A DNA stretch of 52,350 nucleotides. Origin: a virus. Its lineage: Duplodnaviria > Caudoviricetes. Each line of letters begins with the position of its first letter. Position 1 is the stretch's first letter. A program made the translations under genes and the position numbers. This document shows, piece by piece, positions 1,436-31,197 of this stretch. Below the pieces are notes generated by a model that saw only the letters and a program-made list of their open reading frames with translations, did not search any database and was not told where the DNA came from. The stretch lies in IMG/VR virus record IMGVR_UViG_3300038551_000101, positions 1 to 52,350 of that record. One strand, 5' to 3'.

Positions 1436-2065
1436 CTATTCCACCTCGTGTCTAATGGCACCAATCATACGGCCAGTATCATGTAGAGGATTAGAAGAAC
1501 CTTTTACATTTCTTGTAGATGCAGCGTTTGGTGGGCTTTTTACAGTCCTAGCATGACGTTGTATCATTCCAGCAAACTCCATACCAATCATATCCACAAA
1601 CACATCAGGATCAAGACGTAAGTTAATTACATCATCTAAGAACGATTCAATTTTATCGCCAATCTTATCAACGTTACTATCAAAACCCGTTCGAATGAAT
1701 GAACGTTCCGGAATTGTTACCGACCTCATAAGAGCAAATACAGGTTTTATATTACCTTTATCCACTAAAGCCAAAACACCATTACTACCATCTTCAATCC
1801 CTAATGCTACTAGTCCAGGAAAATCAGAAGCGCGTTTGTTTTTCGCTTCAGGGATAAGGGGAATCGTCAACCAATCCCCTTTTTTCGGTAATATAGTGGT
1901 ACCAAATTCATGTACTGCTGCAATCGTAACTAAATCTGCATCATTCGGATATTGATAATTATCTTCACCATGAATACCAACTGTAATTTTCTTGCGGCCT
2001 AACTTTTCCAATGCCTTCTTAATCCGCTTGCTATTATTTGTACTACGAATAGTTACACCCATCAT
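1436..2065 (-). CDS. Neck/tail-completion protein (virion morphogenesis family)
   Basis: AAVHEFG, IPERSFIR and PLHDTGRM motifs. Confidence 0.7.
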   Translation of the reverse strand: MMGVTIRSTNNSKRIKKALEKLGRKKITVGIHGEDNYQYPNDADLVTIAAVHEFGTTILPKKGDWLTIPLIPEAKNKRASDFPGLVALGIEDGSNGVLALVDKGNIKPVFALMRSVTIPERSFIRTGFDSNVDKIGDKIESFLDDVINLRLDPDVFVDMIGMEFAGMIQRHARTVKSPPNAASTRNVKGSSNPLHDTGRMIGAIRHEVE

Positions 2066-2316
2066 CGAAACCTAACTTTCCGATATGGTTTTAAAAAGTT
2101 TAAAGCAGATCTATATGTTGCACCCTCAAAAAAGCTCTTACTCATATCACCCAACGATTGACTCGCAACGTTTTGGCTTTCTTTCATCGATTTAATAATC
2201 ATATCTACAGCAATTTCAACATCAGGAGGTAAAGACCCATCTGTGAATTGTGGCGAACAAAAACTATTAATATGAGCAATTGCACCGGCTCTATATTGTT
2301 CATCTGTTAATGCCAC
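2062..2316 (-). CDS. Head-tail connector (adaptor)
   Basis: 84 aa; SQSLGDMSKSF...LKPYRK is gp15/gp6-like. Confidence 0.7.
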   Translation of the reverse strand: MALTDEQYRAGAIAHINSFCSPQFTDGSLPPDVEIAVDMIIKSMKESQNVASQSLGDMSKSFFEGATYRSALNFLKPYRKVRFR

Positions 2317-2334
2317 TAGCTCGCCCCCTTTTCA

Positions 2335-2598
2335 TTACTCACCGCTTAAAAGTTCAATTAACTCATCTTGCTTTAAGTTGCTGTAATTACTTAATCCTCG
2401 TTCTTTTGCCAACTTCTTTAATTCCGGTACTGTTAAATCATTTAAGTTCTGCTCAACTTCATCATGCTTGTATCCTAAATCCGATAGCAGTCCGATTGTA
2501 CGTTTATCAGTCGTTTCATACTCTCCATCAATAAAAGTACATAAAGCAGTATTCTTTTCTTTATCCCATACAATGCCATGGCCGTAGAACTTCATCAT
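2335..2598 (-). CDS. Rho N-terminal (HeH) domain protein
   Basis: LTVPELKKLAKERGLSNYSNLKQDELIELL. Confidence 0.8.
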   Translation of the reverse strand: MMKFYGHGIVWDKEKNTALCTFIDGEYETTDKRTIGLLSDLGYKHDEVEQNLNDLTVPELKKLAKERGLSNYSNLKQDELIELLSGE

Positions 2599-2756
2599 TT
2601 CTTCATCAGCCCTTGGTCTTTTAGTTTCTTTAATAACGCGTTAAAATCAGCTTTTAGTGCTGCTGCATCGGCAGCTACACTATCAGCCTGTGTTGGCATT
2701 TGGATAACTTCTTTAATCACCGGATCTACACGATTATCATCTTGAATTTTACCCAT
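2595..2756 (-). CDS. Small head fibre/decoration-like protein (53 aa)
   Basis: Not in track. MGKIQDDNRVDPVIKEVIQMPTQADSVAADAAALKADFNALLKKLKDQGLMKK, AAGGAGG RBS, directly after the capsid gene. Confidence 0.7.
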   Translation of the reverse strand: MGKIQDDNRVDPVIKEVIQMPTQADSVAADAAALKADFNALLKKLKDQGLMKK

Positions 2757-2812
2757 TCTGTGACCCTCCTTAGTTCAAATAAAAAGAGAGAGGTTATTAT
2801 CCTCTCCCTGTA

Positions 2813-3760
2813 TTAAGAAATTGCTAATCCAGTAATAGAACCGTGCATAAACGCAGGACCATGAGCAAGACCAATCTCACCGTAGATTTGACCTTTCTCT
2901 GCTGCTCCTGTCTTCGCTAATTCTTCATAGAATAGTACGCCTTTATCTGGCACGTTTTGCAATACTGGAGCCACTACAGACATGTCGAATAATCCAATTG
3001 AACCAGCAGGAACAAAACGATCCCATACAATACCAACTTTAGCGAAATCCGTTTCAATTTGTTGGATATTCACACCACCGACATTACGGTCTTGTGGCGC
3101 ATATCCATAAATTTCACTTATAACTTGTTTATTAAATGCATTAACGTATAAAACCATTTCGTTAAAATCTGCACCGTTTGTCGCCATCATGCGAAGTAAC
3201 TGATTAAATAGATCTTTATTTAATTTAGCGCCAGCTGCAGCAATCGTATTCCCTGTAGAGCATAGCTCGAACATACCGCGCGTTTTGTCCGCTTGCGTTT
3301 CGTTCGCGGCCAATGCATACGTACCATTTAAGAACGTATGTTCAACATCACGAGCAATTTTCGTTAATGATCGTGCGATTTGGAAATCTTTTTCGCTTGG
3401 TACATTATTAGAAGCTCCAGCACTATTGATTCCACTCAAACGCCCACTGTTTGATAATTTGCGGTACGTTACATTCACACTTTCGTGGAAGATTTGTGTG
3501 ACATTCTTATTTTGACCGCGTGTATAGGAAACCGCAGTTGGAGCAGTACCAGATGCTTGTTCTGAAATTGCAGGTTGTGATGGTGCTGGATATTCATATA
3601 AGCTATCAGTCGCGAATTCCTTATTAGATGTTTGTAAACCACCACCAGTTAAACCACCAATCATGGAAAGAAACGGTGTATTCTCTGCATCAGCAGTAAA
3701 TAATTCCCCATCATAGTTTGGTAAATTAAAAGATGTACCTTGACCTGTTACGTTTGCCAT
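2813..3760 (-). CDS. Major capsid protein (DUF5309/SU10-like)
   Basis: 315 aa; TSFNLPNYDGELF, NVTQIFHESV and GQIYGEIGLAHGP motifs; follows scaffold. Confidence 0.9.
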   Translation of the reverse strand: MANVTGQGTSFNLPNYDGELFTADAENTPFLSMIGGLTGGGLQTSNKEFATDSLYEYPAPSQPAISEQASGTAPTAVSYTRGQNKNVTQIFHESVNVTYRKLSNSGRLSGINSAGASNNVPSEKDFQIARSLTKIARDVEHTFLNGTYALAANETQADKTRGMFELCSTGNTIAAAGAKLNKDLFNQLLRMMATNGADFNEMVLYVNAFNKQVISEIYGYAPQDRNVGGVNIQQIETDFAKVGIVWDRFVPAGSIGLFDMSVVAPVLQNVPDKGVLFYEELAKTGAAEKGQIYGEIGLAHGPAFMHGSITGLAIS

Positions 3761-3773
3761 TTAGACATACCTC

Positions 3774-4493
3774 CTATTGTTTTTGTAATGCATGAATTTT
3801 ATTTTTCAGTGCAATTGCACCAGCCATATCACGGCGTTTTAAACATTCTTGGCGCTCTTTTTCTAGCTGTTCAATCTCACTAAGTTGTTTACCACCGCCA
3901 CCTACTAATGGAGCTTTACCTTTGAGCACATCGTTAACCTGCGCTTGTACAGCTTGTTGGAATTGTTCACTGAAAACTTTGATATTCTCATGTGTTTTTT
4001 CAGCATCCTCCCCTAATACAAATGAAGCAAACTCCGGTGGCAATTTCTCAGCAGATAGTTGCTTTTCTGTTTCTAATAGCAGTTTTTCCCGTTGAAATGC
4101 TTGTCGCTCTGATTCAAAGGCTTTTTGATCCTCTTGGAATTTAAGCGCTTCTTTCTCACGCTCCACCTTTGCGCGTTCCTCTGCACTTAGCTTTGCAAGT
4201 TCTTCTGCTTCCAGCTTTGCTTGTTCTACCTTTGCAGCTAATTCCTTATCCTTTTTCGCTTCAAACTTTTTAAGTGCTTCAGATACACGGCGATCAGCTT
4301 CACTTTGCAACTTTGCATTTAGTTCTTCTTGTGTGAGTGTGATAGTTTCCGGTGGTTCTTCCTCTTTACCCGGTTCTCCGCCGGCTCCTAAATCCTCACT
4401 AAAGAACTGAAGGTTTGTTAATCGTAACGGGAATTTCTTCTCCGCTACTTCTTTAAAAAATGGTACTTTTATATTTTCAACTTTATATGACAT
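3774..4493 (-). CDS. Capsid scaffolding protein (DUF4355)
   Basis: Coiled-coil, TQEELN...DRRVSEAL; N-terminal NLQFF motif. Start moved to ATG 4493 by RBS. Confidence 0.85.
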   Translation of the reverse strand: MSYKVENIKVPFFKEVAEKKFPLRLTNLQFFSEDLGAGGEPGKEEEPPETITLTQEELNAKLQSEADRRVSEALKKFEAKKDKELAAKVEQAKLEAEELAKLSAEERAKVEREKEALKFQEDQKAFESERQAFQREKLLLETEKQLSAEKLPPEFASFVLGEDAEKTHENIKVFSEQFQQAVQAQVNDVLKGKAPLVGGGGKQLSEIEQLEKERQECLKRRDMAGAIALKNKIHALQKQ

Positions 4494-4631
4494 TCCAATT
4501 TCCTCCTTGCCCTGCGTAGTTCCGTAGCCCTCCACAGTTCAATGATTTTTAGCAGTTTATAGCGTCATACTTAGGACAAATGGATAATAAAAAAACACCT
4601 ACTCTTTTAAGTACGTGTTACTTGCATATTA

Positions 4632-5561
4632 TTAAGATGCCAATCTTTCTTTCTGCCAATCTTTAAATGCCATGTTCTCCAGTTCCTTATACTGCGGTCT
4701 TTCTATTCTCATTACAGTATAAGTAACGAAACAACGGCAATTAATGGATGAACCAGCAGCAGGTAATAACCCTGGAGCGGGTCCCTTACTCAGTCCATCA
4801 TCAAACAATTCATGCATCTCAATGATTTTATTGTTTAACTTTCTATGGTTTGCAATGGTCTTTTTCCCTTTGCTTGGTCTTACACGCTCATCTTCTAACG
4901 TGTTCCATTGTTTCCCCATGATTACGCCATTTTTAGTAGCGTGGTCAGCTGCATCATGCTTTGCGCTTTCCTGTACCCGATGTCCTTCTGTACGAACAAT
5001 ACGAGTAGCTTTGACAACATCGCCTTCTAATGAATCCTTTAAGCGTTTTGCCATAATAGCATATGTCTCATTCTCCTGTAAGCCTTGTGTGACTTCCTGC
5101 TGGATCTTATGAATAATATCAGCCCGGTTCTTTTCTAAACGAGCTTTCAATGTTAATCCTGCTACTGGATTCTGTAGCATTGCAGTAAGTGACTCTGGTC
5201 TCACGGATGCATATCCTAGTTTGGTACGTGTAGTTGTTTCCACGCCCCATGCTGTTAGGTAGTATCCATCTTTATATACTTCTCCTAACACTTTAGTCAT
5301 TTGTTTACTGACTTCTTTATGATTAACTCCCATAATCCAGTTAATCCGCTTGTTCAGCTTATTCAGCCGATCATATTTGAGCATTTCTTCAAGTGTTAAC
5401 TCTCCGTTTTGCTCATACTTTTCATATTGCTCTGCCATCAGTTTCCTAATCTCAACTAATGTTTTCGCATATTGACGAGCAATTGCCCGTTCTGCTTTTT
5501 TTATTAATTGACCGATACGGCGATTTATCAGTTTGAAGATGTCAAACAGATTCATATCCAA
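4632..5561 (-). CDS. Minor head protein (SPP1 gp7/MuF family)
   Basis: RIVRTE, DERVR..H and INCRC motifs. Confidence 0.85.
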   Translation of the reverse strand: MDMNLFDIFKLINRRIGQLIKKAERAIARQYAKTLVEIRKLMAEQYEKYEQNGELTLEEMLKYDRLNKLNKRINWIMGVNHKEVSKQMTKVLGEVYKDGYYLTAWGVETTTRTKLGYASVRPESLTAMLQNPVAGLTLKARLEKNRADIIHKIQQEVTQGLQENETYAIMAKRLKDSLEGDVVKATRIVRTEGHRVQESAKHDAADHATKNGVIMGKQWNTLEDERVRPSKGKKTIANHRKLNNKIIEMHELFDDGLSKGPAPGLLPAAGSSINCRCFVTYTVMRIERPQYKELENMAFKDWQKERLAS

Positions 5562-6939: not shown

Positions 6940-8205
6940 TTATAAGCCTAATCCTTTGCGGATGTCGGTATTATTTGCATTTCCTCTGCGGCGTTTATCC
7001 TCAATAATGTAGCGTAAAGCAGCCATAGCATCATCAAACACTTCTACAGGTTCATCTAAATTCTCACCCGTTTTCGAATCTCGTTTCCACTTCCACTGTT
7101 GTATTTCTGCGATGGTATTTACACAAGAAGGGTGAATGTGTATCTTCAGTGTTTTTAAATAATCAATTTGAGCTTTTACACTATTAGGATTCTTAACAAC
7201 AGGTACAGCTTTGTATCCTGCTTTCCTCCACGTTTTAATACGATCCGGTTCAGCAGAATCACAATACATCATTAACCGCTTATTAATACCCTGCTTATCC
7301 GCTATTTCAATAATTTCACCTGTATCTTTTTCATGGACATAAATCTCATTGCAAATATACAACTCTCCATCTTTCCATCCACCAGTAAGAATTGCATTAG
7401 CATGGTTAAATCCAAAGTCCTGCGCATGATTCATAGAATCGAATCTCTCAAATGATGTATCGAAATCATGTATCTTGTAATTTTTAAGAATCAGCCCACC
7501 AATTTCTCCCCATTCACCTAGCCCGTATATTTGGTACCCCTCTGGATCTTGTGCTTTTCGCAACATCATCCTTCTGTGGTACGCTTCATCTATAAATCGA
7601 TTTGTTAAATACGTTGAATGATGAGTAAATATATCAGGATGCTCAATATCAAAGTATTTCTTTTTAATCCAATGCGTAGATGATACAGGGTTAAATGTAA
7701 AAGTAATTTGGTAATATAAATTTGGATTAGGCAGTATACCGCGCAAACGGTCATCAAGAATATCGATATCATTTTCTTTTAACTCTGTAGATTCTTCAAT
7801 CCATATCCAAGTTAACTTACCATGCTCAAATGTTATCGATTTAACTTTCTCGCGCTCGCTATCATCTTTCATACCACGAAATATGATCATATTCCCTGTA
7901 GTTTTGCACACCATTTCTAACGGGCTTTGTTTAATGCTCCAATACTTCTTTGCTTTCCTGCCAAACACTATATTGATAGCTTTCCTCAACTCTGCATAAG
8001 TTGAATGGCGATTCGTAACATCAATCTTCCTAACAACAAGCAAGTTAGCCCCTTGAAATTTCGGATCAGATAATTTAAGGATGAAGTCTTGAGCAATATT
8101 AGTTGACTTACCACTACCAGCAGAACCCTTTAACGCGCGGTATCGCTTCCTGCACTCATTTACAGGCTTGAAACTTCGGTTAAATTGTACCCTGATTTTA
8201 CTCAT
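6940..8205 (-). CDS. terL: Terminase large subunit, PBSX family
   Basis: Walker A GSAGSGKS, Walker B WIWIEE, TFNP, nuclease DDAMAALRY. Probable start MSKIRV at 8205. Confidence 0.95.
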   Translation of the reverse strand: MSKIRVQFNRSFKPVNECRKRYRALKGSAGSGKSTNIAQDFILKLSDPKFQGANLLVVRKIDVTNRHSTYAELRKAINIVFGRKAKKYWSIKQSPLEMVCKTTGNMIIFRGMKDDSEREKVKSITFEHGKLTWIWIEESTELKENDIDILDDRLRGILPNPNLYYQITFTFNPVSSTHWIKKKYFDIEHPDIFTHHSTYLTNRFIDEAYHRRMMLRKAQDPEGYQIYGLGEWGEIGGLILKNYKIHDFDTSFERFDSMNHAQDFGFNHANAILTGGWKDGELYICNEIYVHEKDTGEIIEIADKQGINKRLMMYCDSAEPDRIKTWRKAGYKAVPVVKNPNSVKAQIDYLKTLKIHIHPSCVNTIAEIQQWKWKRDSKTGENLDEPVEVFDDAMAALRYIIEDKRRRGNANNTDIRKGLGL

Positions 8206-9019
8206 CTTCATCACCATAATCGACTGTAATTTCAAGGCTGTTATCATCATCACCATCATCAATACGTTTAATCTCAGCAGTAGTCTTTTCAATGTTTAAC
8301 TTCATCTGCTCCAGCTCTAAACGGCGTTTATCATCAGCATGAGCTAATTGATCAAAACGGGCTATCATTGAAGTTAATGTGCTCATTGCCCTAGAAAGGG
8401 AATTAAGCAGGTTCGCTTGTTTCTCCCAAGCTTGTTGTATCGTCCATTGCTTCTCTACAGGAATTTCATCAATAATTTCATCACCATCTTCTGTTTTATC
8501 AAACCTAAGATAGTACTTAATTCCCGTTAATTCCTTTGTTTTATCCCGTTCATTACGAACATGCATGATACGTTGGGAGTTTAGGATATTGAAGTATTTA
8601 AGCCGTATCATTGTAAATAACATTGATACAGGATCTTCACTTTCAATCTCTTCTAATAGCTCCATAGCAGCTTCATCATCTTGCGGAATGATTTTACGGA
8701 ACAACCCGTGCTTCACTGCATTGTCATTTTTCTCCGGCGCACCATGACCAACTGCGTTTTTATTGCCCCACTTCGGTTTTGTATTACCCCGATTTCCTGT
8801 TGCATTTGCATTTTTATAGGGTGCACCTTTTTTCTTTGGTTTCTCTTTTTGTGTGCACACTTTTTCTTCTTTTGTATGCACACCTTTTCGATTCCATTTG
8901 TACCTGGTTTTCCACGACTTCACTGTATTAATACTAACTTCATGTTTATCAGCTATATCCTTGTATTTCATTCCTTGCAAATAATCTTGTTCAGCTAACT
9001 CGTGTTTTTGTTTAGTCAC
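8198..9019 (-). CDS. terS: Terminase small subunit (YqaS/XtmA-like)
   Basis: N-terminal HTH (GMKYKDIADKHEVSINTVKSWK), GAP-N-NA-KHG repeats; GTG start at 9019. Confidence 0.88.
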   Translation of the reverse strand: MTKQKHELAEQDYLQGMKYKDIADKHEVSINTVKSWKTRYKWNRKGVHTKEEKVCTQKEKPKKKGAPYKNANATGNRGNTKPKWGNKNAVGHGAPEKNDNAVKHGLFRKIIPQDDEAAMELLEEIESEDPVSMLFTMIRLKYFNILNSQRIMHVRNERDKTKELTGIKYYLRFDKTEDGDEIIDEIPVEKQWTIQQAWEKQANLLNSLSRAMSTLTSMIARFDQLAHADDKRRLELEQMKLNIEKTTAEIKRIDDGDDDNSLEITVDYGDEDE

Positions 9020-9061
9020 GTCACACCACCACACCACCCCTTCAATAGTAGGTGCGGATTG

Positions 9062-9859: not shown

Positions 9860-10120
9860 CTATTTTTGTTCAAAAATTGCGCATTGTAATCGATATCCTT
9901 CTAAATACCAAATTTGATCCGTAATTCGTTTCTTGCAAATTTCAATCCCGATATTCACATCGTAATTAACCGGATCTACACAAGCGCTTGATTCAGTTAA
10001 AATAAATCCGTTTGGCAATTGCGCAACTACTACTGTACATTTACCGTGGAACTCTTCTACTGTCCAATGTGTCTTTTCTAAAATGTTATTAATATCTTCT
10101 TGCGTTACTGTATTTTTCAT
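9860..10120 (-). CDS. acb2: Gp49-family protein, Acb2-like anti-CBASS nucleotide sponge
   Basis: LPNGFILTESSACVDPVNYDVNIG...IWYLEGYRLQ matches the gp49/Acb2 signature. Confidence 0.8.
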   Translation of the reverse strand: MKNTVTQEDINNILEKTHWTVEEFHGKCTVVVAQLPNGFILTESSACVDPVNYDVNIGIEICKKRITDQIWYLEGYRLQCAIFEQK

Positions 10121-10332
10121 TATTCAACAACCTCCCAATTTTCAGCGAATAACTCAATATTCGTTTCTTTCCATGGCACTCTTCCGAATCGACTCTCAAC
10201 ATATAAGTATGGAGCAGTCATTTTACTATGCTCATCAGGAAATTGAGCGCGAATTACTACGTCAGGACTCCATTGTGGTAATCTCATCCCTTTTCCCTTT
10301 TTTACCTCTTCAAAAGCTTGACCAAAATTCAT
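10120..10332 (-). CDS. tad2: DUF2829 protein, Tad2-like anti-Thoeris sponge
   Basis: MNFGQAFEEVKKGKGMRLPQW...PYLY...VPW...LFAENWEVVE; start at ATG 10332. Confidence 0.78.
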   Translation of the reverse strand: MNFGQAFEEVKKGKGMRLPQWSPDVVIRAQFPDEHSKMTAPYLYVESRFGRVPWKETNIELFAENWEVVE

Positions 10333-10382
10333 TTCCTTTCCTCCTCTATTTCCAATCATTGAGTTCGTTTGTTTTGTAAAAC

Positions 10383-10667
10383 TCAGCAAGTCGTCCTTGC
10401 TCTGATTCGCATCGGTTTTCGATTTAGTACCTGCGACTTCATCACTTTATTTTTCACATACCCATAAATTACTCGTGCTGGTTTTCTTTCTTTTGTACAC
10501 TCTTCATAAAACCACACGATTTCTTTAACTTGCTCCTTAACCTGCTCCCACGATTGACGAATCCATTGAACAATTGTTTGAACAGCTTCATAAAACTTCT
10601 TTACAGCTTTCTGCAATATTTCAATATCAACCGATGTATCAACCAATGTTATTATTTGTTTAGTCAT
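10383..10667 (-). CDS. Hypothetical protein
   Basis: 94 aa, overlaps the upstream gene's stop. Confidence 0.6.
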   Translation of the reverse strand: MTKQIITLVDTSVDIEILQKAVKKFYEAVQTIVQWIRQSWEQVKEQVKEIVWFYEECTKERKPARVIYGYVKNKVMKSQVLNRKPMRIRARTTC

Positions 10668-10887
10668 TTAAATTCCTCTTCATATTCTCAACTACTTGTT
10701 TAGCTACTTGGTCTGCTTCCTCTTTTGTTAGATTAGGAGCATTTACCGTAGCGCTATAAGTAAATGTTTTTGTTTCTTTTTTAGAGGTTTTTAATGAAGC
10801 ATAAATGATGGTCACACCTGCACCAACAAATGTTATTTTAATTACGTTATCTAATACCAATGATGACCACATTAAAAAATCAAACAT
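10660..10887 (-). CDS. Small single-TM hypothetical protein
   Basis: 75 aa, hydrophobic N-terminus, GGGGAG RBS. Confidence 0.6.
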   Translation of the reverse strand: MFDFLMWSSLVLDNVIKITFVGAGVTIIYASLKTSKKETKTFTYSATVNAPNLTKEEADQVAKQVVENMKRNLND

Positions 10888-10965
10888 AATAATAATCTCC
10901 CCCTAACCATATATCTATTTCATTCAACTTCATGTTTAATATGTAATTTCTATATAACAAAGAAA

Positions 10966-11010
10966 AAAAGCCTATTAATCCTGCATAAGAACAGGTTAAT
11001 TAGGCTTTTT
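10966..11010 (-). terminator. Intrinsic terminator (possibly bidirectional)
   Basis: AAAAAGCCTATTAATCCTG...CAGGTTAATTAGGCTTTTT stem with A/T tails. Confidence 0.7.
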
Positions 11011-11895
11011 CAATCCAATCCTGAAGGAATAATGTGATTAAGTTGGCTTCTTAATCATCTCGCAACCACCGCACTGAAATATCATGGCTACACGCCGTGT
11101 GTTCGGTGGCTGGGAGAAGACTAAGAAATGTCCTCTCTTTTATACTCCGTGGAGTCGGAATGAATCGTTCCTCGAGTCAATTCATTCCTGTATGATTAAT
11201 CTGCGCTCAGTTGCGCCGGGGAGAAAGTCCCAAAGTATGAGGTCTACACCCTCTTTCAACATACAATTTTCTATATGCTCAAAGAGAGGTAGGCGCTCTC
11301 TTATAAAGGTTTTTACATTTATATCAAGACGCATGTACTTATTCCGGCGCCTTGTTTGAACCAATATATCAAGGGGAAGGCGAGGGGAACGCCTTTACAT
11401 TGGTTCAAACAAAGAGCCGTAGCTGTAGCTCCTTGCTCGTTTAATTGTTAAAGTCAAATAAAGGCCCTGACTCCATTTGACTTCGTTATATTAATAACCG
11501 CTGTGAGTAATTATTAATATAATTGTGCAATAAATTCCCTCCCCTGCAATTGAATACGAAATCAAGATTCAACATACAGGATGCGCATAAAGGTTTTACT
11601 GCTTTTGAGAACATAAGTAAGGCGTAGGTACTTATATGCTCAATAAGAAGTAAAACATATTGTCTCATCCAATAACCCAGAAGGAATGATTAGTATTAGA
11701 TACAGACAGGCTATAAAACTATAACCTTTGAAAAGAGAATTTCACTCTTCTCATTCCCCGTGCCGAGTTGTCGCAATACTGCTAGGCTCCGCATGTTCCC
11801 TCTGTACAATCTCATGCATCGTCACCATTCAACCCAACCGAGTGCACCTTTGATATAGGAGATAGTGCTCCTCCCATGAATTACTTCATGGGATA
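10966..11895 (-). ncRNA. Candidate large structured RNA / late leader with at least 12 hairpins
   Basis: No credible ORF with RBS; consecutive inverted repeats (see findings). Confidence 0.5.
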
Positions 11896-11954
11896 AGCTT
11901 ACCTCTGATTCAAATAGTAAAAGGTACCCGAAATGGTAGCCCAAAAGTGCCATT

Positions 11955-12347
11955 TTACATAATCCCTAGTGCATCAGCGAAATTTGCAATAGCAGATTTT
12001 TTCTTTCTGTAAAAGGTTCTCCTTTTAATGCCGATCATTGTGTAAATATAATCATCATTGAGTATCTTTGTATTCATGTACTTCATTTCTAATATTTTTC
12101 TCTCATCCTCATCTAGCGCTTCCTCTAATGCTCTTTTAATTTGAATGTATTGGATGTATTTTTTTCTTTCTTCTGGATCTTCCTGACGAGTTGCTTTCAA
12201 TTCCGGGAATAAGATTTCCACCCCAAGTGCTTCCCTCTCTTGCTTATTTTGAAATTTAACTTTTAATACACGGTATTTGTGCAATGCAATAATAACGTCC
12301 TGGAGTAAATCGTTTTCTCCCTCTTTCTTTTGTTGCTTATTCATCAA
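11955..12347 (-). CDS. ArpU/RinA-family late transcriptional activator
   Basis: LDEDERKILEMKYM...DDYIYTMIGIKRRTFYRKKKSAIANFADAL. Confidence 0.85.
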   Translation of the reverse strand: MMNKQQKKEGENDLLQDVIIALHKYRVLKVKFQNKQEREALGVEILFPELKATRQEDPEERKKYIQYIQIKRALEEALDEDERKILEMKYMNTKILNDDYIYTMIGIKRRTFYRKKKSAIANFADALGIM

Positions 12348-12487
12348 GTCAGAATCCCCCTATGTCCAATTTTTAAATAATTCATTTCATTAAGGTACGT
12401 GAAATTTTATTATTTTTATACTGAATAAGGGAACGATGATTACAATACAGCCCCACACCACACTGTTAATCATGGTTCCACTATTCA

Positions 12488-13348: not shown

Positions 13349-13711
13349 TTATTTTGTTACAAACAGTACTTCTTTTAACTTCCGTAATTCTATAAGTGAC
13401 ATCTTATCAACCGTATCCTTTAATTCTTTTCTTAATTGAGCTTTTTCTTTACCTCTCTCAATCATGTCCCAATATTCCTTTTCGGTCCGATAAGCTTGAT
13501 AATGATATCCCCATCCAGTGTTATGCGATAAATCCTTTTGGTTGAATCTATATGGTGATTTATCTTCTACCCCTTCAGGATTAGCGTAAAAACTTGTTTT
13601 ATTAGCTCTGACAACGATGAATTTTCTTAAATTAGGTTCTGACTTACCTACCCATCCGCCGCTTGTACTCACATAAACTTCTTGACCTTCTTCCATTTTG
13701 ATTTTAGTCAT
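13349..13711 (-). CDS. Hypothetical beta-barrel-like protein
   Basis: 120 aa, GGAGG RBS. Confidence 0.65.
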   Translation of the reverse strand: MTKIKMEEGQEVYVSTSGGWVGKSEPNLRKFIVVRANKTSFYANPEGVEDKSPYRFNQKDLSHNTGWGYHYQAYRTEKEYWDMIERGKEKAQLRKELKDTVDKMSLIELRKLKEVLFVTK

Positions 13712-24472: not shown

Positions 24473-25669
24473 TTAATTATAACATTTTAATGCGTTAATA
24501 GGTAGAGAAATATAGAAAAAATCCCCTGTTTTAGAAAAAAATTCTACTGACTTTTCTAAGTATTTTTTGTCTCCTGTTGCAACCCCTAAATAATATAATT
24601 GAAAGGCACTAAGTCTTCCATTTTGCTTTTCAAGCCCTTTCAATATTTCTATTGCTTCTTCATTTTTTTCAGTTTTTATATAGAAATAAGCTAATTCTGC
24701 TAAATCTAATTTTGTACGATCAATAGTATCAAGCTCTTTTCCATGGTGTATTTTTAAAAACAAGAGAACATTTAATATTCGATTCCTTCTTGTTTTTAGC
24801 TTTTTATTTGTAGGTTCACCAAGGATTTTTAAGGCTTGGTCTATATAACCTTTTGCCGTATTGTAATCTGTTAAAGCATAGCTTTCACCAAGTTTACAAT
24901 ACGCAATAGCTTTTGTACTTATATAATAATTAAATGGATCATTTATAATTTCTAGACAAACATCCCTAGCCCCTAATATATCTCCTTCATTATGGAGTTT
25001 AATAACACTTTGCATTTCTTTAATACGCAGTAAAAAAGAATTTTTGTTTGTATGCTTGCTTACTAATCCAATCCTTGGTAATAAGCTTTGTATATACTCA
25101 TTTACTTTTGTATAATCACTAAAATCAAGATACGAATACAAAGCACTAAATTCTGCAATTATCATCAAATCATTTTCCGTATGTTTATGCGAATTTATTT
25201 TCTTTTGGATTTCGTCTAAAAAATCTTTCGCAGTAATAGACCCTTCACTTCTTTTTCTCAACAATTGATAATATTCTGCAATCCTAATATTTGTACGGAT
25301 TGTTAAAGAGTTTCCTTTTTTTAGTTGAGATTCATTAGTTTTACTCTTAAATTTCAATATTTGTTCTATCACCAATTCCTGTAATTCGTATTCCCCAAAC
25401 ATATCCAATACCTCAAGAGCCAATTTTAGGTTTTTTGGAGATAGTGATGGTATATAAGCTTTAATACATTTTCTTCTAAAATCAATATCTTTAGGCCTAT
25501 ACAACCTAAGCAAGTCAACAAAATGCATAAAATCAAATTTACCTTGATCTTTAAAATAACTGTTTACCGTTGTATGAGTTACATTAAAACGAATTGCTAA
25601 TTTTCTATTCGTATATCCATCCGAAATTAATTTTTCACGCATCTTTTTCAAATCCAATACAACTTGCAC
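24473..25669 (-). CDS. aimR: Arbitrium peptide receptor AimR (RRNPP: HTH plus TPR)
   Basis: 398 aa; N-terminal HTH, LGESY motif, C-terminal LSAFQLYYLG...GDFFY; followed by a secreted peptide gene. Confidence 0.9.
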   Translation of the reverse strand: MQVVLDLKKMREKLISDGYTNRKLAIRFNVTHTTVNSYFKDQGKFDFMHFVDLLRLYRPKDIDFRRKCIKAYIPSLSPKNLKLALEVLDMFGEYELQELVIEQILKFKSKTNESQLKKGNSLTIRTNIRIAEYYQLLRKRSEGSITAKDFLDEIQKKINSHKHTENDLMIIAEFSALYSYLDFSDYTKVNEYIQSLLPRIGLVSKHTNKNSFLLRIKEMQSVIKLHNEGDILGARDVCLEIINDPFNYYISTKAIAYCKLGESYALTDYNTAKGYIDQALKILGEPTNKKLKTRRNRILNVLLFLKIHHGKELDTIDRTKLDLAELAYFYIKTEKNEEAIEILKGLEKQNGRLSAFQLYYLGVATGDKKYLEKSVEFFSKTGDFFYISLPINALKCYN

Positions 25670-29722: not shown

Positions 29723-30202
29723 CTATTTTTCTATTCTATCTAAAATCATTTCGATCGCCTGGTTCACAAGCTCCGTTTTAAATCCTTTTCTTTTCCCTTT
29801 AGAAAGCTTTTCAAGGCGTTTAACTGTTTCGTTTTTAATTAACCATGTTTGACGAGTGTGTGTGTCTTCTTTAGTAACCTTTTTATTAAACTGTTCAAGA
29901 AACTGTTCAGTAAACTTATCATGAATATGTTCATTTTTATTTTCCTCTTCAATTTCAGGCTCCTGTTTAATTTCAGGTTCATTTTCCTCTTTAACTTCCG
30001 GTTCATCTTCATTATTATTCTCAACAACTTCTTCAACTGTTGGCACATCAGGGATTGTCGGCTTTTCTTCGCCTTCTTTTATTTCTTGTTTTTGATTTAA
30101 TTCTTCGCTATCAGCAACATCAGAAAACCCGGGTATTTTTGGTTTTTCTTTTTTAAGATTATCTCCGTAATCAGCTAAATCTCCTTTACCAGAACGAGCC
30201 AT
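29723..30202 (-). CDS. Partition adaptor / centromere-binding protein (type Ib-like)
   Basis: Acidic disordered N-terminus, C-terminal RHH-like THTRQTWLIKNETVKRL...KTELVNQAI; coupled to parA. Confidence 0.7.
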   Translation of the reverse strand: MARSGKGDLADYGDNLKKEKPKIPGFSDVADSEELNQKQEIKEGEEKPTIPDVPTVEEVVENNNEDEPEVKEENEPEIKQEPEIEEENKNEHIHDKFTEQFLEQFNKKVTKEDTHTRQTWLIKNETVKRLEKLSKGKRKGFKTELVNQAIEMILDRIEK

Positions 30203-30990
30203 TACACAGTCACCTCCGTTAATAATTCATTCGCTAAATCAACGTACAAATCTACAACATTATCTTTCTTTTTAATAAGTGTCGCAGGTTTTTTCTCGTA
30301 AGCTATTGCTTTAGCAAACTTAATTGATTTAGGAATAATTGTCTCAAATACTTTAATATCATTCTGCAAACAGAATTTGCGACATTCTTGTAACACTTCT
30401 TCATGAAGCGTTGCCCTTCTGTCGTAAAGAGTCGGAACAACTCCTAATAAATTTAGTTCTGTATTTGTCTTAGTTCTAAATTTATCGATAGTTTTTACCA
30501 TCTTCACTAAAGATCGCATGCTGTACACTTCAGGTTGGAACGGGATGACTACATCTGTTGCAAACTCCAATACATTCGCTTGGATCAATCCTAAGTTTGG
30601 TGGTGTATCAATAAATATGTAATCATAATCACTTACTACATCTTTCATTGCATTTTTTAACAATCCAAAAGGAGTAGGATATTTTCCGATTTCCGGTAAA
30701 ACATCTAGTTCAAAAAATGACATGTCATCATTTGATGGTAGAACATCTATATTTTCATGCACATTCATAATTGCGTGTTGTACTGGTAATCCATCTACTA
30801 AAACATCATATAATGTGTACTGACACTTATCAGGATTCTGGTTGAACGAAACTAATGCATTACCTTGGTTATCCGTATCAATAATTAAAACTTTCTTCCC
30901 TTGTGTCGCTAATACACCTGCAAGGTTTACTACAAGTGATGTTTTTAATACGCCACCTTTGTTCTGCGAAATAGATATAATTTTAGTCAA
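30202..30990 (-). CDS. parA: ParA/Soj partition ATPase
   Basis: KGGVLKTS, IDTDNQGN, YIFIDTPP; TTG start at 30990 with AAGGAGG. Confidence 0.93.
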   Translation of the reverse strand: MTKIISISQNKGGVLKTSLVVNLAGVLATQGKKVLIIDTDNQGNALVSFNQNPDKCQYTLYDVLVDGLPVQHAIMNVHENIDVLPSNDDMSFFELDVLPEIGKYPTPFGLLKNAMKDVVSDYDYIFIDTPPNLGLIQANVLEFATDVVIPFQPEVYSMRSLVKMVKTIDKFRTKTNTELNLLGVVPTLYDRRATLHEEVLQECRKFCLQNDIKVFETIIPKSIKFAKAIAYEKKPATLIKKKDNVVDLYVDLANELLTEVTV

Positions 30991-31197
30991 GGTTTTCTCC
31001 TCCTTATTATCTGTTACAGAATAACATAATGAAACTGAATAGTACACGTAATAATTTAATAAACAAATTACTGTTCATTAACATATTCATAAAACTGAAC
31101 AGTTTTATATTACTTTTCATTAATAATGTTTATGTTATTGAATACACTAATGATTTATATAACTGTTTCTATTTCTTTTCATGAAATCCTGCAAAGA

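Follow-up and report, generated by a model that had tools for sequence, protein, structure and literature searches.

What does a temperate Bacillus cereus-group phage encode in the ~930 nt (positions 10,966 to 11,895) between the gene of its late transcriptional activator and the genes that follow, where we found no conserved open reading frame (ORF)? We addressed this question in IMG/VR record IMGVR_UViG_3300038551_000101, a complete virus record of 52,350 bp (hereafter the window), in which the genes around the region are oriented on the minus strand. The original prediction, made from the letters of the window, had described a hairpin-packed non-coding stretch that could be a large phage RNA, an array of small RNAs or decoys, or a processive antitermination element. 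We found that the region encodes one long structured RNA on the minus strand, the two cores of which, modules A and B, have retained their pairing by compensatory change. We conclude with high confidence that the element represents a conserved structured RNA family.

A structured RNA with two covarying cores

On the minus strand, the two halves of the region folded with z-scores of -10.57 (10960-11445) and -5.19 (11425-11955), and in neither case was any of 100 dinucleotide shuffles equally stable, whereas the arpU gene used as a control (11955-12440, minus strand) gave a z-score of -0.58, with 33 of 100 shuffles as stable as the native sequence. The minimum free energy was -343.2 kcal/mol for the minus strand versus -286.8 kcal/mol for the plus strand, and the GC content was 0.43-0.44 across 11000-11450 versus 0.29-0.35 in the flanks. 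All of the stems listed in the original prediction were present in the minus-strand minimum-free-energy folds: those at 11035-11057, 11059-11116 (within module B), 11157-11188, 11282-11301 and 11352-11412 in the 3′ half, and those at 11451-11483, 11486-11522, 11543-11580, 11593-11657, 11709-11726, 11733-11749 and 11873-11892 in the 5′ half. A CGCC motif, said to be shared by several of the loops, is indeed found in the window sequence, but distant homologs keep only a C-rich loop, UUCCCCU.

Module A (11322..11448, minus strand) consists of helix A1, the long hairpin A2 (11352-11412), whose apical loop is C-rich, and hairpin A3, a CAAGGCG/CGTCTTG stem with a 14-nt loop. It was analysed in 28 representatives, less than 94% alike, taken from 67 distinct sequences (ten loci were left out). 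Across these 28 sequences, 99.4% of the cells of its three helices (29 pairs) were paired, and both sides had changed in 8 pairs (40 cells), a result that none of 500 column shuffles equalled; with the partners slid out of register, 29-52% were paired. Hairpin A2 holds seven of the covarying pairs of the module, and the helices of module A include invariant G-U pairs. The divergent locus L238, reached only through module B, keeps A1, A2 and A3 with stem sequences that are almost all different, and retains the apical UUCCCCU loop. In two other loci, L044 (~12013-12199) and L080 (~3021-3204), the apical part of A2 is replaced by an insertion of ~65 nt that carries two T-arm-like hairpins (GGTTCGATTCC). 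We rejected the possibility that these are tRNAs: ARAGORN found none, and the covariance model of module A, R2, places them as insertions in A2.

Module B (11036..11166, minus strand) comprises a hairpin with a conserved UNCG-type tetraloop (C-UACG-G), a long interrupted helix (TCTTCTCC..CACCG / CGGTGG..GAGA) and a 3′ hairpin (11035-11057). In 72 sequences (two of the original 74, truncated by locus ends, were dropped) its 22 pairs were 98.2% paired, with both sides changed in 6 pairs (51 cells). No shuffle out of 500 matched the number of changed cells or the score, and 49 of 500 matched the number of changed pairs. Of 58 distinct sequences, 53 form the 3′ hairpin, and among these the stem has at least seven different sequences; the four outermost pairs that RNAalifold gives the module-B helix compete with this better-supported hairpin and were not relied on.

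The check for covariation across homologs thus found compensatory changes in excess of both shuffled and slid controls in modules A and B. The covariance models also distinguished the strands of the window: R2 scored 108.2 bits on the minus strand versus 30.2 on the plus strand, and the model of module B, R1, scored 94.3 versus 31.3 bits. We assigned the element to the minus strand because of this asymmetry and of the invariant G-U pairs. Since the compensatory changes, together with the conserved G-U pairs, fix the strand, the element therefore acts as RNA. The two modules, moreover, occur together. Among 13 loci found independently via module B alone, 11 carry both modules in a fixed order, ten with R2 scores above 100 bits and one with a weak score.

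Distribution and mosaic build of the family

A BLASTN search of the window region against deposited phages returned 10 records, which represent seven Bacillus phages (PfNC7401, PfIS075, 250, 0105phi7-2, LY4, IEBH and CUBc25). Each of the seven has 0.9-1.1 kb in the same position, either unannotated or annotated as tiny 'hypothetical proteins'. The only blocks of the window common to these phages are 11416-11296, 11158-11048 and 10971-10902, and the modules are ~80% identical between phages. A degenerate pattern derived from block 11416-11296 matched 108 IMG/VR stretches, of which L065, L092 and L093 proved to be GC-rich false matches. When the loci (n=106) were compared with the window, 11420-11320 was covered in 81-105 of them and 11160-11100 in 64-93; 11460-11960 was covered in essentially one of the 106.

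The R1 model found the element in all four Bacillus genomes reached through the loci, at up to four copies per genome, and, at E values up to 1e-5, in 32 of 105 species genomes of the B. cereus-group family. Among 151 genomes of the order, there were only three strong matches, all within the same family, and two weak ones (37 and 33 bits); in the genomes searched, the element was not found outside the B. cereus-group family. A contig scan with an 18-nt degenerate module-B pattern gave, among the 80 matches listed, almost exclusively chance hits in unrelated phyla, together with four Bacillus contigs that were real. So far, only phages and prophages from the Bacillus cereus group are known to carry the family.

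Comparison with Rfam 15 gave no match at the gathering score anywhere in the window; at E values up to 10, region 10700-12100 gave two chance miRNA matches only, and positions 1990-3050 of IEBH gave nothing relevant. An RNase P 'GGUAAGA' look-alike in the common type of 5′ domain was unsupported in the latter search and was discarded. Six related loci (L001-L004, L006 and L063) had no relevant Rfam match except in L002, the PfNC7401 locus, where a DUF3800-VIII RNA (RF03075, 60.4 bits) lies at 2824-2886, immediately past the 3′ end of module B, with the large RNA on one side and a conserved 21-mer (see below) on the other. ARAGORN detected no tRNA or tmRNA in the window and no tRNA adjoining the element in 30 loci; the sole tRNA was in L092, one of the GC-rich false matches. 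The 'large phage RNA' raised in the original prediction is thus borne out as a strand-specific structured family with covariation and without an Rfam match.

Around the two cores the family is variable, and the 5′ domains fall into five types among 99 loci. The window has a rare type (11449..11906, minus strand; z-score -5.19, as above), which folds into about nine hairpins and is common only to the window and L063. An IEBH-type 5′ domain is found instead in 89 of the 99 loci with sufficient upstream sequence, and conservation of the IEBH type spans ~850 nt in 72-105 of 106 loci. Full-length MAFFT alignments of sequences of 1040 and 920 nt ran to 3222 and 2260 columns, respectively, too gappy for folding, and the analysis was therefore done per module.

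The evidence for conservation of the window's own 5′ domain comes from one homolog, L063, in which the domain is 88-92% identical, the arpU gene is 74-79% identical, and the sequence past the terminator is unrelated. In the RNAalifold structure of this pair, 141 of 165 base pairs were unchanged, one partner had changed in 19 and both in 5, and none was broken, an outcome toward which this method is biased; against the minimum-free-energy structure of the window itself, 4 pairs had changed on both sides and 13 were broken. Differences between window and L063 fell in 29 of 330 paired columns versus 48 of 233 unpaired columns, and the hairpin at 11486-11522 has three compensatory changes. Since 3 of 105 genomes have weak matches to the hairpin at 11558-11657 in the corresponding place, the 5′ domains are mosaics themselves. 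We also noted a direct repeat of ~20 nt (RNA sense AUUCCUUC.GG.UU.UUGGAU), with one copy in the 5′ domain (11660-11690) and the other between module B and the terminator (11011-11035).

Between modules A and B, the window carries a variable insert (11167..11321, minus strand) with the hairpins at 11282-11301 and 11157-11188. This insert is common to only 12-14 of 106 loci, and across 11200-11299 it is 60% identical, with gaps, to L063. A candidate long-range pairing of a G-run in the 5′ domain with a C-run (in the A2 loop or past module B) gave ambiguous results, being perfect in one variant and misfitting in others; in the window and L063, two sequences only, it shows a matched G/C insertion.

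The two ends of the element and its place in the late region

An intrinsic terminator at 10966-11010 (minus strand) closes the RNA, as had been predicted: a hairpin of -19.7 kcal/mol (RNAfold) followed by 7 T. The gapless consensus terminator scan did not list this site, because its stem is bulged, and in a consensus scan no internal terminators or promoters were seen in the window element. Every variant of the element ends in an intrinsic terminator. Directly past it, at the head of the late gene cluster, lies a near-invariant 21-mer, TATAGAAATTACAYATTAAAC (10934..10954, minus strand), which is unique in the window (0.01 copies expected). The exact 21-mer is present, at one copy each, in 90 of 251 loci (L001-L005 and about 85 others). 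In those element loci that were examined, it follows module B on the RNA strand, at a distance of 39-784 nt (median 369), and in 42 of 57 distinct contexts it is directly preceded by a hairpin and a T-run. The 21-mer is conserved beyond any surrounding gene or RNA module, regardless of the type of activator or of terS. No sigma-A-like hexamers are visible in its region. In some phages, an ORF or the DUF3800-VIII RNA is placed between the RNA and the unit formed by a second terminator and the 21-mer.

The last gene before the element (11955..12347, minus strand) encodes an ArpU-like late transcriptional activator of 130 amino acids (phrog_248 'transcriptional activator', E 1.3e-18); its match to DUF1492 is weak (20.4 bits, under the 21.5 cut-off). 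An ArpU homolog is found upstream, on the same strand, in at least 71 of 100 element loci, which is a lower bound because only 50 loci extend 2.6 kb upstream. The median amino acid identity of these homologs is 38%, so that the RNA is better conserved than the activator protein.

According to the accessible part of a study of Ltr proteins (PMC3753634), the binding sites of these proteins, ArpU included, are three direct repeats of 7 nt that follow closely on the activator's own gene; the repeats are activator-specific and are followed by a shared stretch. In the window, putative ArpU boxes can be read at 11914..11943 (minus strand): two imperfect direct repeats, GGGCTACC at 11935-11942 and GGGTACC at 11923-11929, with a 1-nt indel between the copies, then a -10-like TACTAT (11914-11919). 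In L063 both repeats are altered in concert, G to A, giving GAGCTAC and GAGTACC. IEBH has CGGATAA three times at 2007-2047, just past the upstream gene and with spacings of 11 and 23 nt, and no other copies in its 5.3-kb locus; PfNC7401 has three GGGAACAAA-like boxes at 1902-1944, just past arpU; and L109 and L070 have a third type of repeat. In the relatives, these activator-type direct repeats cluster only at the 5′ edge of the element, and family-wide conservation begins no more than ~30 nt downstream of the last repeat. This arrangement fits the earlier proposal that the promoter driven by the activator lies immediately past the activator gene. From the two imperfect repeats followed by TACTAT, we infer that the RNA of the window starts near 11906 and is ~940 nt long (~11906 to 10963).

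Four RNA runs were mapped on L060, a relative of the common type with the element on its minus strand (~4469-5508). Run X19 gave seven reads (six at 95-99% likeness), all in one orientation and only within 4533-5459 and around the 21-mer; the flanks of the L060 element, which may differ in that strain, were without reads. Run X15 gave 99 reads that cover only 4096-4147 (52 nt; the T-run and the 21-mer), and ~80 of them continue on both sides into sequence that is not that of L060, matching the context of L015 including its terminator hairpin. Since these reads span the terminator and the 21-mer, the transcripts run through this site and do not start at the 21-mer. Runs X13 and X18 gave 0 reads and 1 read, respectively.

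Downstream of the element, the first ORF (10660..10887, minus strand; 75 amino acids) has a strong ribosome-binding site, GGGGGAG. It is followed by small accessory genes, one of which encodes a protein with a Tad2-like (Thoeris anti-defence 2) domain (10120-10389, minus strand; PF11195, E 1.7e-12), and then by terS (8198-9037, minus strand, the same strand as the activator gene). A homolog of the Tad2-like protein was found in only one of 100 related loci, so the slot between the RNA and terS holds variable accessory genes. On the other side, 1.4 kb upstream of the RNA, a ProQ C-terminal-like phage protein is encoded at 13349-13711 (minus strand; PF24203, E 7.5e-13). It is possibly an RNA binder; because none of 100 element-bearing loci has a homolog, we rejected it as a dedicated partner of the RNA.

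The genes of the window also encode an SPP1-type portal, an SU10-type capsid protein and a PlyG-type endolysin, as well as an AimR-type arbitrium regulator (24473-25669, minus strand) and a ParA-like ATPase (30202-31047, minus strand). The Pfam scan of the window covered 40 of 77 ORFs. No reverse transcriptase was found among these 40, and a reverse transcriptase or retron-type reading was dropped. No integrase was seen among them either, so the phage may be maintained as a plasmid prophage.

A proposed leader of the late operon, or possibly a free RNA

The anatomy of the locus suggests that the element is the leader of the late operon. ArpU/Ltr would bind the direct repeats at the 5′ edge of the RNA and fire a promoter there; polymerase would transcribe the whole folded leader and cross its terminator (and, in some relatives, a second one); and read-through would then take it across the 21-mer and the small accessory genes to terS and the structural genes. 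Before terS, polymerase would in this case have one or two terminators to pass, besides ~0.9 kb of folded leader. The folded core would act in cis on the transcribing polymerase and set the level of read-through, and the terminated 0.94-kb RNA would accumulate as a by-product or a second product. Because of the fixed position and orientation, the terminator and the conserved core, control of read-through in cis would be the simplest function, and RNA-mediated antitermination, or gating, of the late operon seems to us a plausible, though tentative, proposal. The position would suit antitermination if the promoter lies at ~11914-11943, with terminators at 10966-11010 and, as further strong terminator-like hairpins on the coding strand of the late operon, at 2809-2785 and 547-513. 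The X15 reads across the terminator and the 21-mer are the sole hint of terminator resistance in cis. More doubtful is the stronger claim of a new class, a giant (0.85-1 kb) cis-acting RNA antiterminator or 'transcription gate' of the late operons of Ltr/ArpU phages. There, the A/B core would reprogramme polymerase past the leader terminator and the terminators in the ~25-kb late operon, with the exchangeable 5′ domains and the invariant 21-mer tuning the signal or receiving it.

Several observations, however, speak against a gating leader. Both ends of the RNA are predicted; the window has only two imperfect copies of the repeat, which the repeat tool did not return, and the consensus promoter scan of the window did not list the proposed site. 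In the late region, 6 terminator-like sites were found versus 6.7 expected from shuffles. The RNA-read support amounts to seven reads from one run, on a relative and not on the window; the strand call of the reads assumes a dUTP-type library, and the X15 reads cover only 52 nt of the reference. The apparent invariance of the A3 stem and loop is inflated, in part because the retrieval pattern required both of them; the 13 loci found independently via module B have the exact A3 motif in seven cases and a near motif in one. Known RNA antiterminators are far smaller (put ~70 nt, EAR ~120 nt), and a mosaic of 0.85-1 kb with swappable 5′ domains is more than antitermination needs. Finally, the strong terminator kept directly after the RNA would suit a discrete, released RNA equally well.

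A released RNA is, indeed, what a different explanation proposes: a free, trans-acting, GOLLD/ROOL-like 'ornate' RNA, with most transcripts ending at the terminator and the late genes starting at the 21-mer. Such an RNA could be a scaffold or cage, a decoy for host defence, or a binder of proteins or G-rich RNA via its C-rich loops. The element is self-contained, all its variants have a strong terminator, and its size and mosaic periphery are like those of large bacterial RNAs, as far as the accessible part of PMC5737381 describes them. The X19 reads are limited to the element, the single-stranded UUCCCCU loop persists in divergent members, an anti-defence gene (Tad2-like) adjoins, and the 21-mer is invariant despite very different activators, like a site read by something conserved. 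Yet the 21-mer lacks visible sigma-A-like hexamers, the X15 reads cross it together with the terminator and no pile-up of molecule starts was reported, the activator boxes lie only at the 5′ edge of the RNA, the element keeps a single position and orientation ahead of the late genes, and neither an Rfam relation to GOLLD/ROOL nor a nearby tRNA was found; we regard a trans-acting role as the strongest competitor of the gating leader, and as somewhat less likely. The free recombination of modules, evident from the five 5′-domain types among 99 loci and the variable insert, could instead point to a series of separate small structured RNAs or of mobile hairpins, each a small RNA, decoy or stabiliser. 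This would agree with the insertion of RF03075 past module B in PfNC7401, with the recurrence elsewhere of one hairpin of the window's 5′ domain, and with the units of only 29-151 nt in the IMG/VR csRNA catalogue, in the portion accessible (PMC10690425). We nevertheless regard a string of small RNAs as improbable, as 11 of the 13 loci found via module B have the two core modules together and in the same order, a single terminator closes the whole, and internal terminators or promoters were not seen in the window element.

Two further explanations dispense with a functional RNA. The claim of the original prediction that the region is non-coding stood insofar as there is no conserved ORF, although short ORFs are present (the longest are 60 amino acids on the minus strand and 91 on the plus strand), and these could represent unannotated or decayed coding sequence, either a 5′ leader peptide or a small plus-strand protein over module B. 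None of six region ORFs matched Pfam, and one of the six matched PHROG: the first 22 amino acids of the plus-strand ORF 11084-11359, which overlies module B, match phrog_30248, a 40-amino-acid family of unknown function whose members are probably ORFs called in error across this conserved RNA. In elements of the common type, a Shine-Dalgarno sequence and an in-frame ATG at the 5′ edge open a short ORF, MRxSNYxYLTS.., of 20-59 amino acids, found in 31 IMG/VR loci and three repeat contexts (for example, L003 2053-2160 and L002 1939-2070), and some records annotate tiny 'hypothetical proteins' at the locus. However, the differences at codon positions 1/2/3 (23/14/23 and 86/103/98) show no periodicity and the ends of the peptides shift through frameshifts, making it unlikely that this ORF codes for protein; it was set aside for want of a coding signature, although a short leader peptide is conceivable. 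Moreover, L063 lacks the ATG of the window's 43-amino-acid ORF (11822-11953) and has 1- and 2-nt indels within the window's short ORFs, and the covariation, with its G-U pairs, is specific to the minus strand, which together leave a coding origin of the region very unlikely. We give still less credence to an element acting as DNA, such as a packaging site, a replication or single-strand origin, or a recombination hotspot with DNA hairpins. Single-strand origins, too, are strand-specific clusters of hairpins; the element sits a few genes upstream of terS, and the 21-mer behaves like a protein-binding DNA site. But the element ends in a transcription terminator, conserves a UNCG-type C-UACG-G tetraloop, is covered by reads of one orientation and, at 0.9 kb, far exceeds such sites, and it is conserved even though terS is divergent among its carriers (a homolog in 24 of 100 loci, with a median identity of 53%).

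A gating leader would have partial precedents. In bacteriophage lambda, the Q gene is followed by the pR' promoter, the 194-nt '6S' RNA, the tR' terminator and then the late genes, which is the same order of regulator gene, promoter, terminated leader and long late operon needing read-through. In lambda, however, the Q protein is itself the antiterminator and the leader is short and simple, whereas here the regulator belongs to an activator family and the element, conserved as structure, is ~5 times longer. The put RNAs of HK022 and the EAR element are RNAs of ~70-120 nt that mediate processive antitermination. They, too, are cis-acting folded RNAs early in a long operon, and the position of the element and its downstream terminators fit, but at Rfam thresholds no match of that kind was found here. 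Late promoters of the Ltr group (RinA/ArpU/LtrA-C) have, as do the relatives IEBH and PfNC7401, three short activator-specific repeats followed by a conserved stretch, and in the published Ltr phages, in the part of the source accessible (PMC3753634), the repeats and terS are joined by one intergenic region with the ltr terminator and the terS promoter. In contrast, ~0.9 kb of structured RNA and several small genes lie between the repeats and terS here.

GOLLD (RF01998) and ROOL (RF03087) are likewise very large folded non-coding RNAs of Firmicutes phages and prophages, with a conserved core and a variable periphery. The accessible part of PMC5737381 gives an average of 581 nt for ROOL, and the present element is larger (~0.85-1 kb). 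It has no match to their covariance models, either at the gathering score or at E values up to 10. A tRNA neighbourhood is frequent for GOLLD and ROOL, whereas none was found here (in the window and in 29 of 30 loci, the remaining tRNA being that of the false match L092). Unlike them, the element always occupies the interval from the late activator to the late genes, in one orientation, and in the genomes searched it is restricted to the B. cereus-group family. The accessible part of the IMG/VR csRNA catalogue (PMC10690425) holds 8495 'DNAVirus_X' candidates of 29-151 nt and describes no large RNA; single hairpins of the element may be among these candidates. We found no description of a large RNA in B. 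cereus phages in the literature searched, and Bacillus is not mentioned in the accessible part of a preprint (10.64898/2026.09.22.753630). The element is a new family within a known kind, that of large structured phage RNAs or late leaders.

RNAs as large and structured as this one are, to our knowledge, uncommon among bacteria and phages, and its position in a genetic circuit is defined, running from the activator gene and the boxes through the RNA and its terminator to the invariant motif and the late genes. Its carriers include cultivable phages (IEBH, 250, PfNC7401, 0105phi7-2, LY4 and CUBc25) and about a third of the B. cereus-group species genomes, which makes its function directly testable, unlike that of GOLLD and ROOL so far. 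Annotation pipelines probably miscall ORFs over the element, as with phrog_30248. If the RNA is an antiterminator, it would be by far the largest RNA known in that role and would fill a gap left by activator-only models of late transcription in phages of Gram-positive bacteria. If it gates the late operon, it would add an RNA layer to late control by RinA/ArpU-type activators, and hence to phage packaging and gene transfer.

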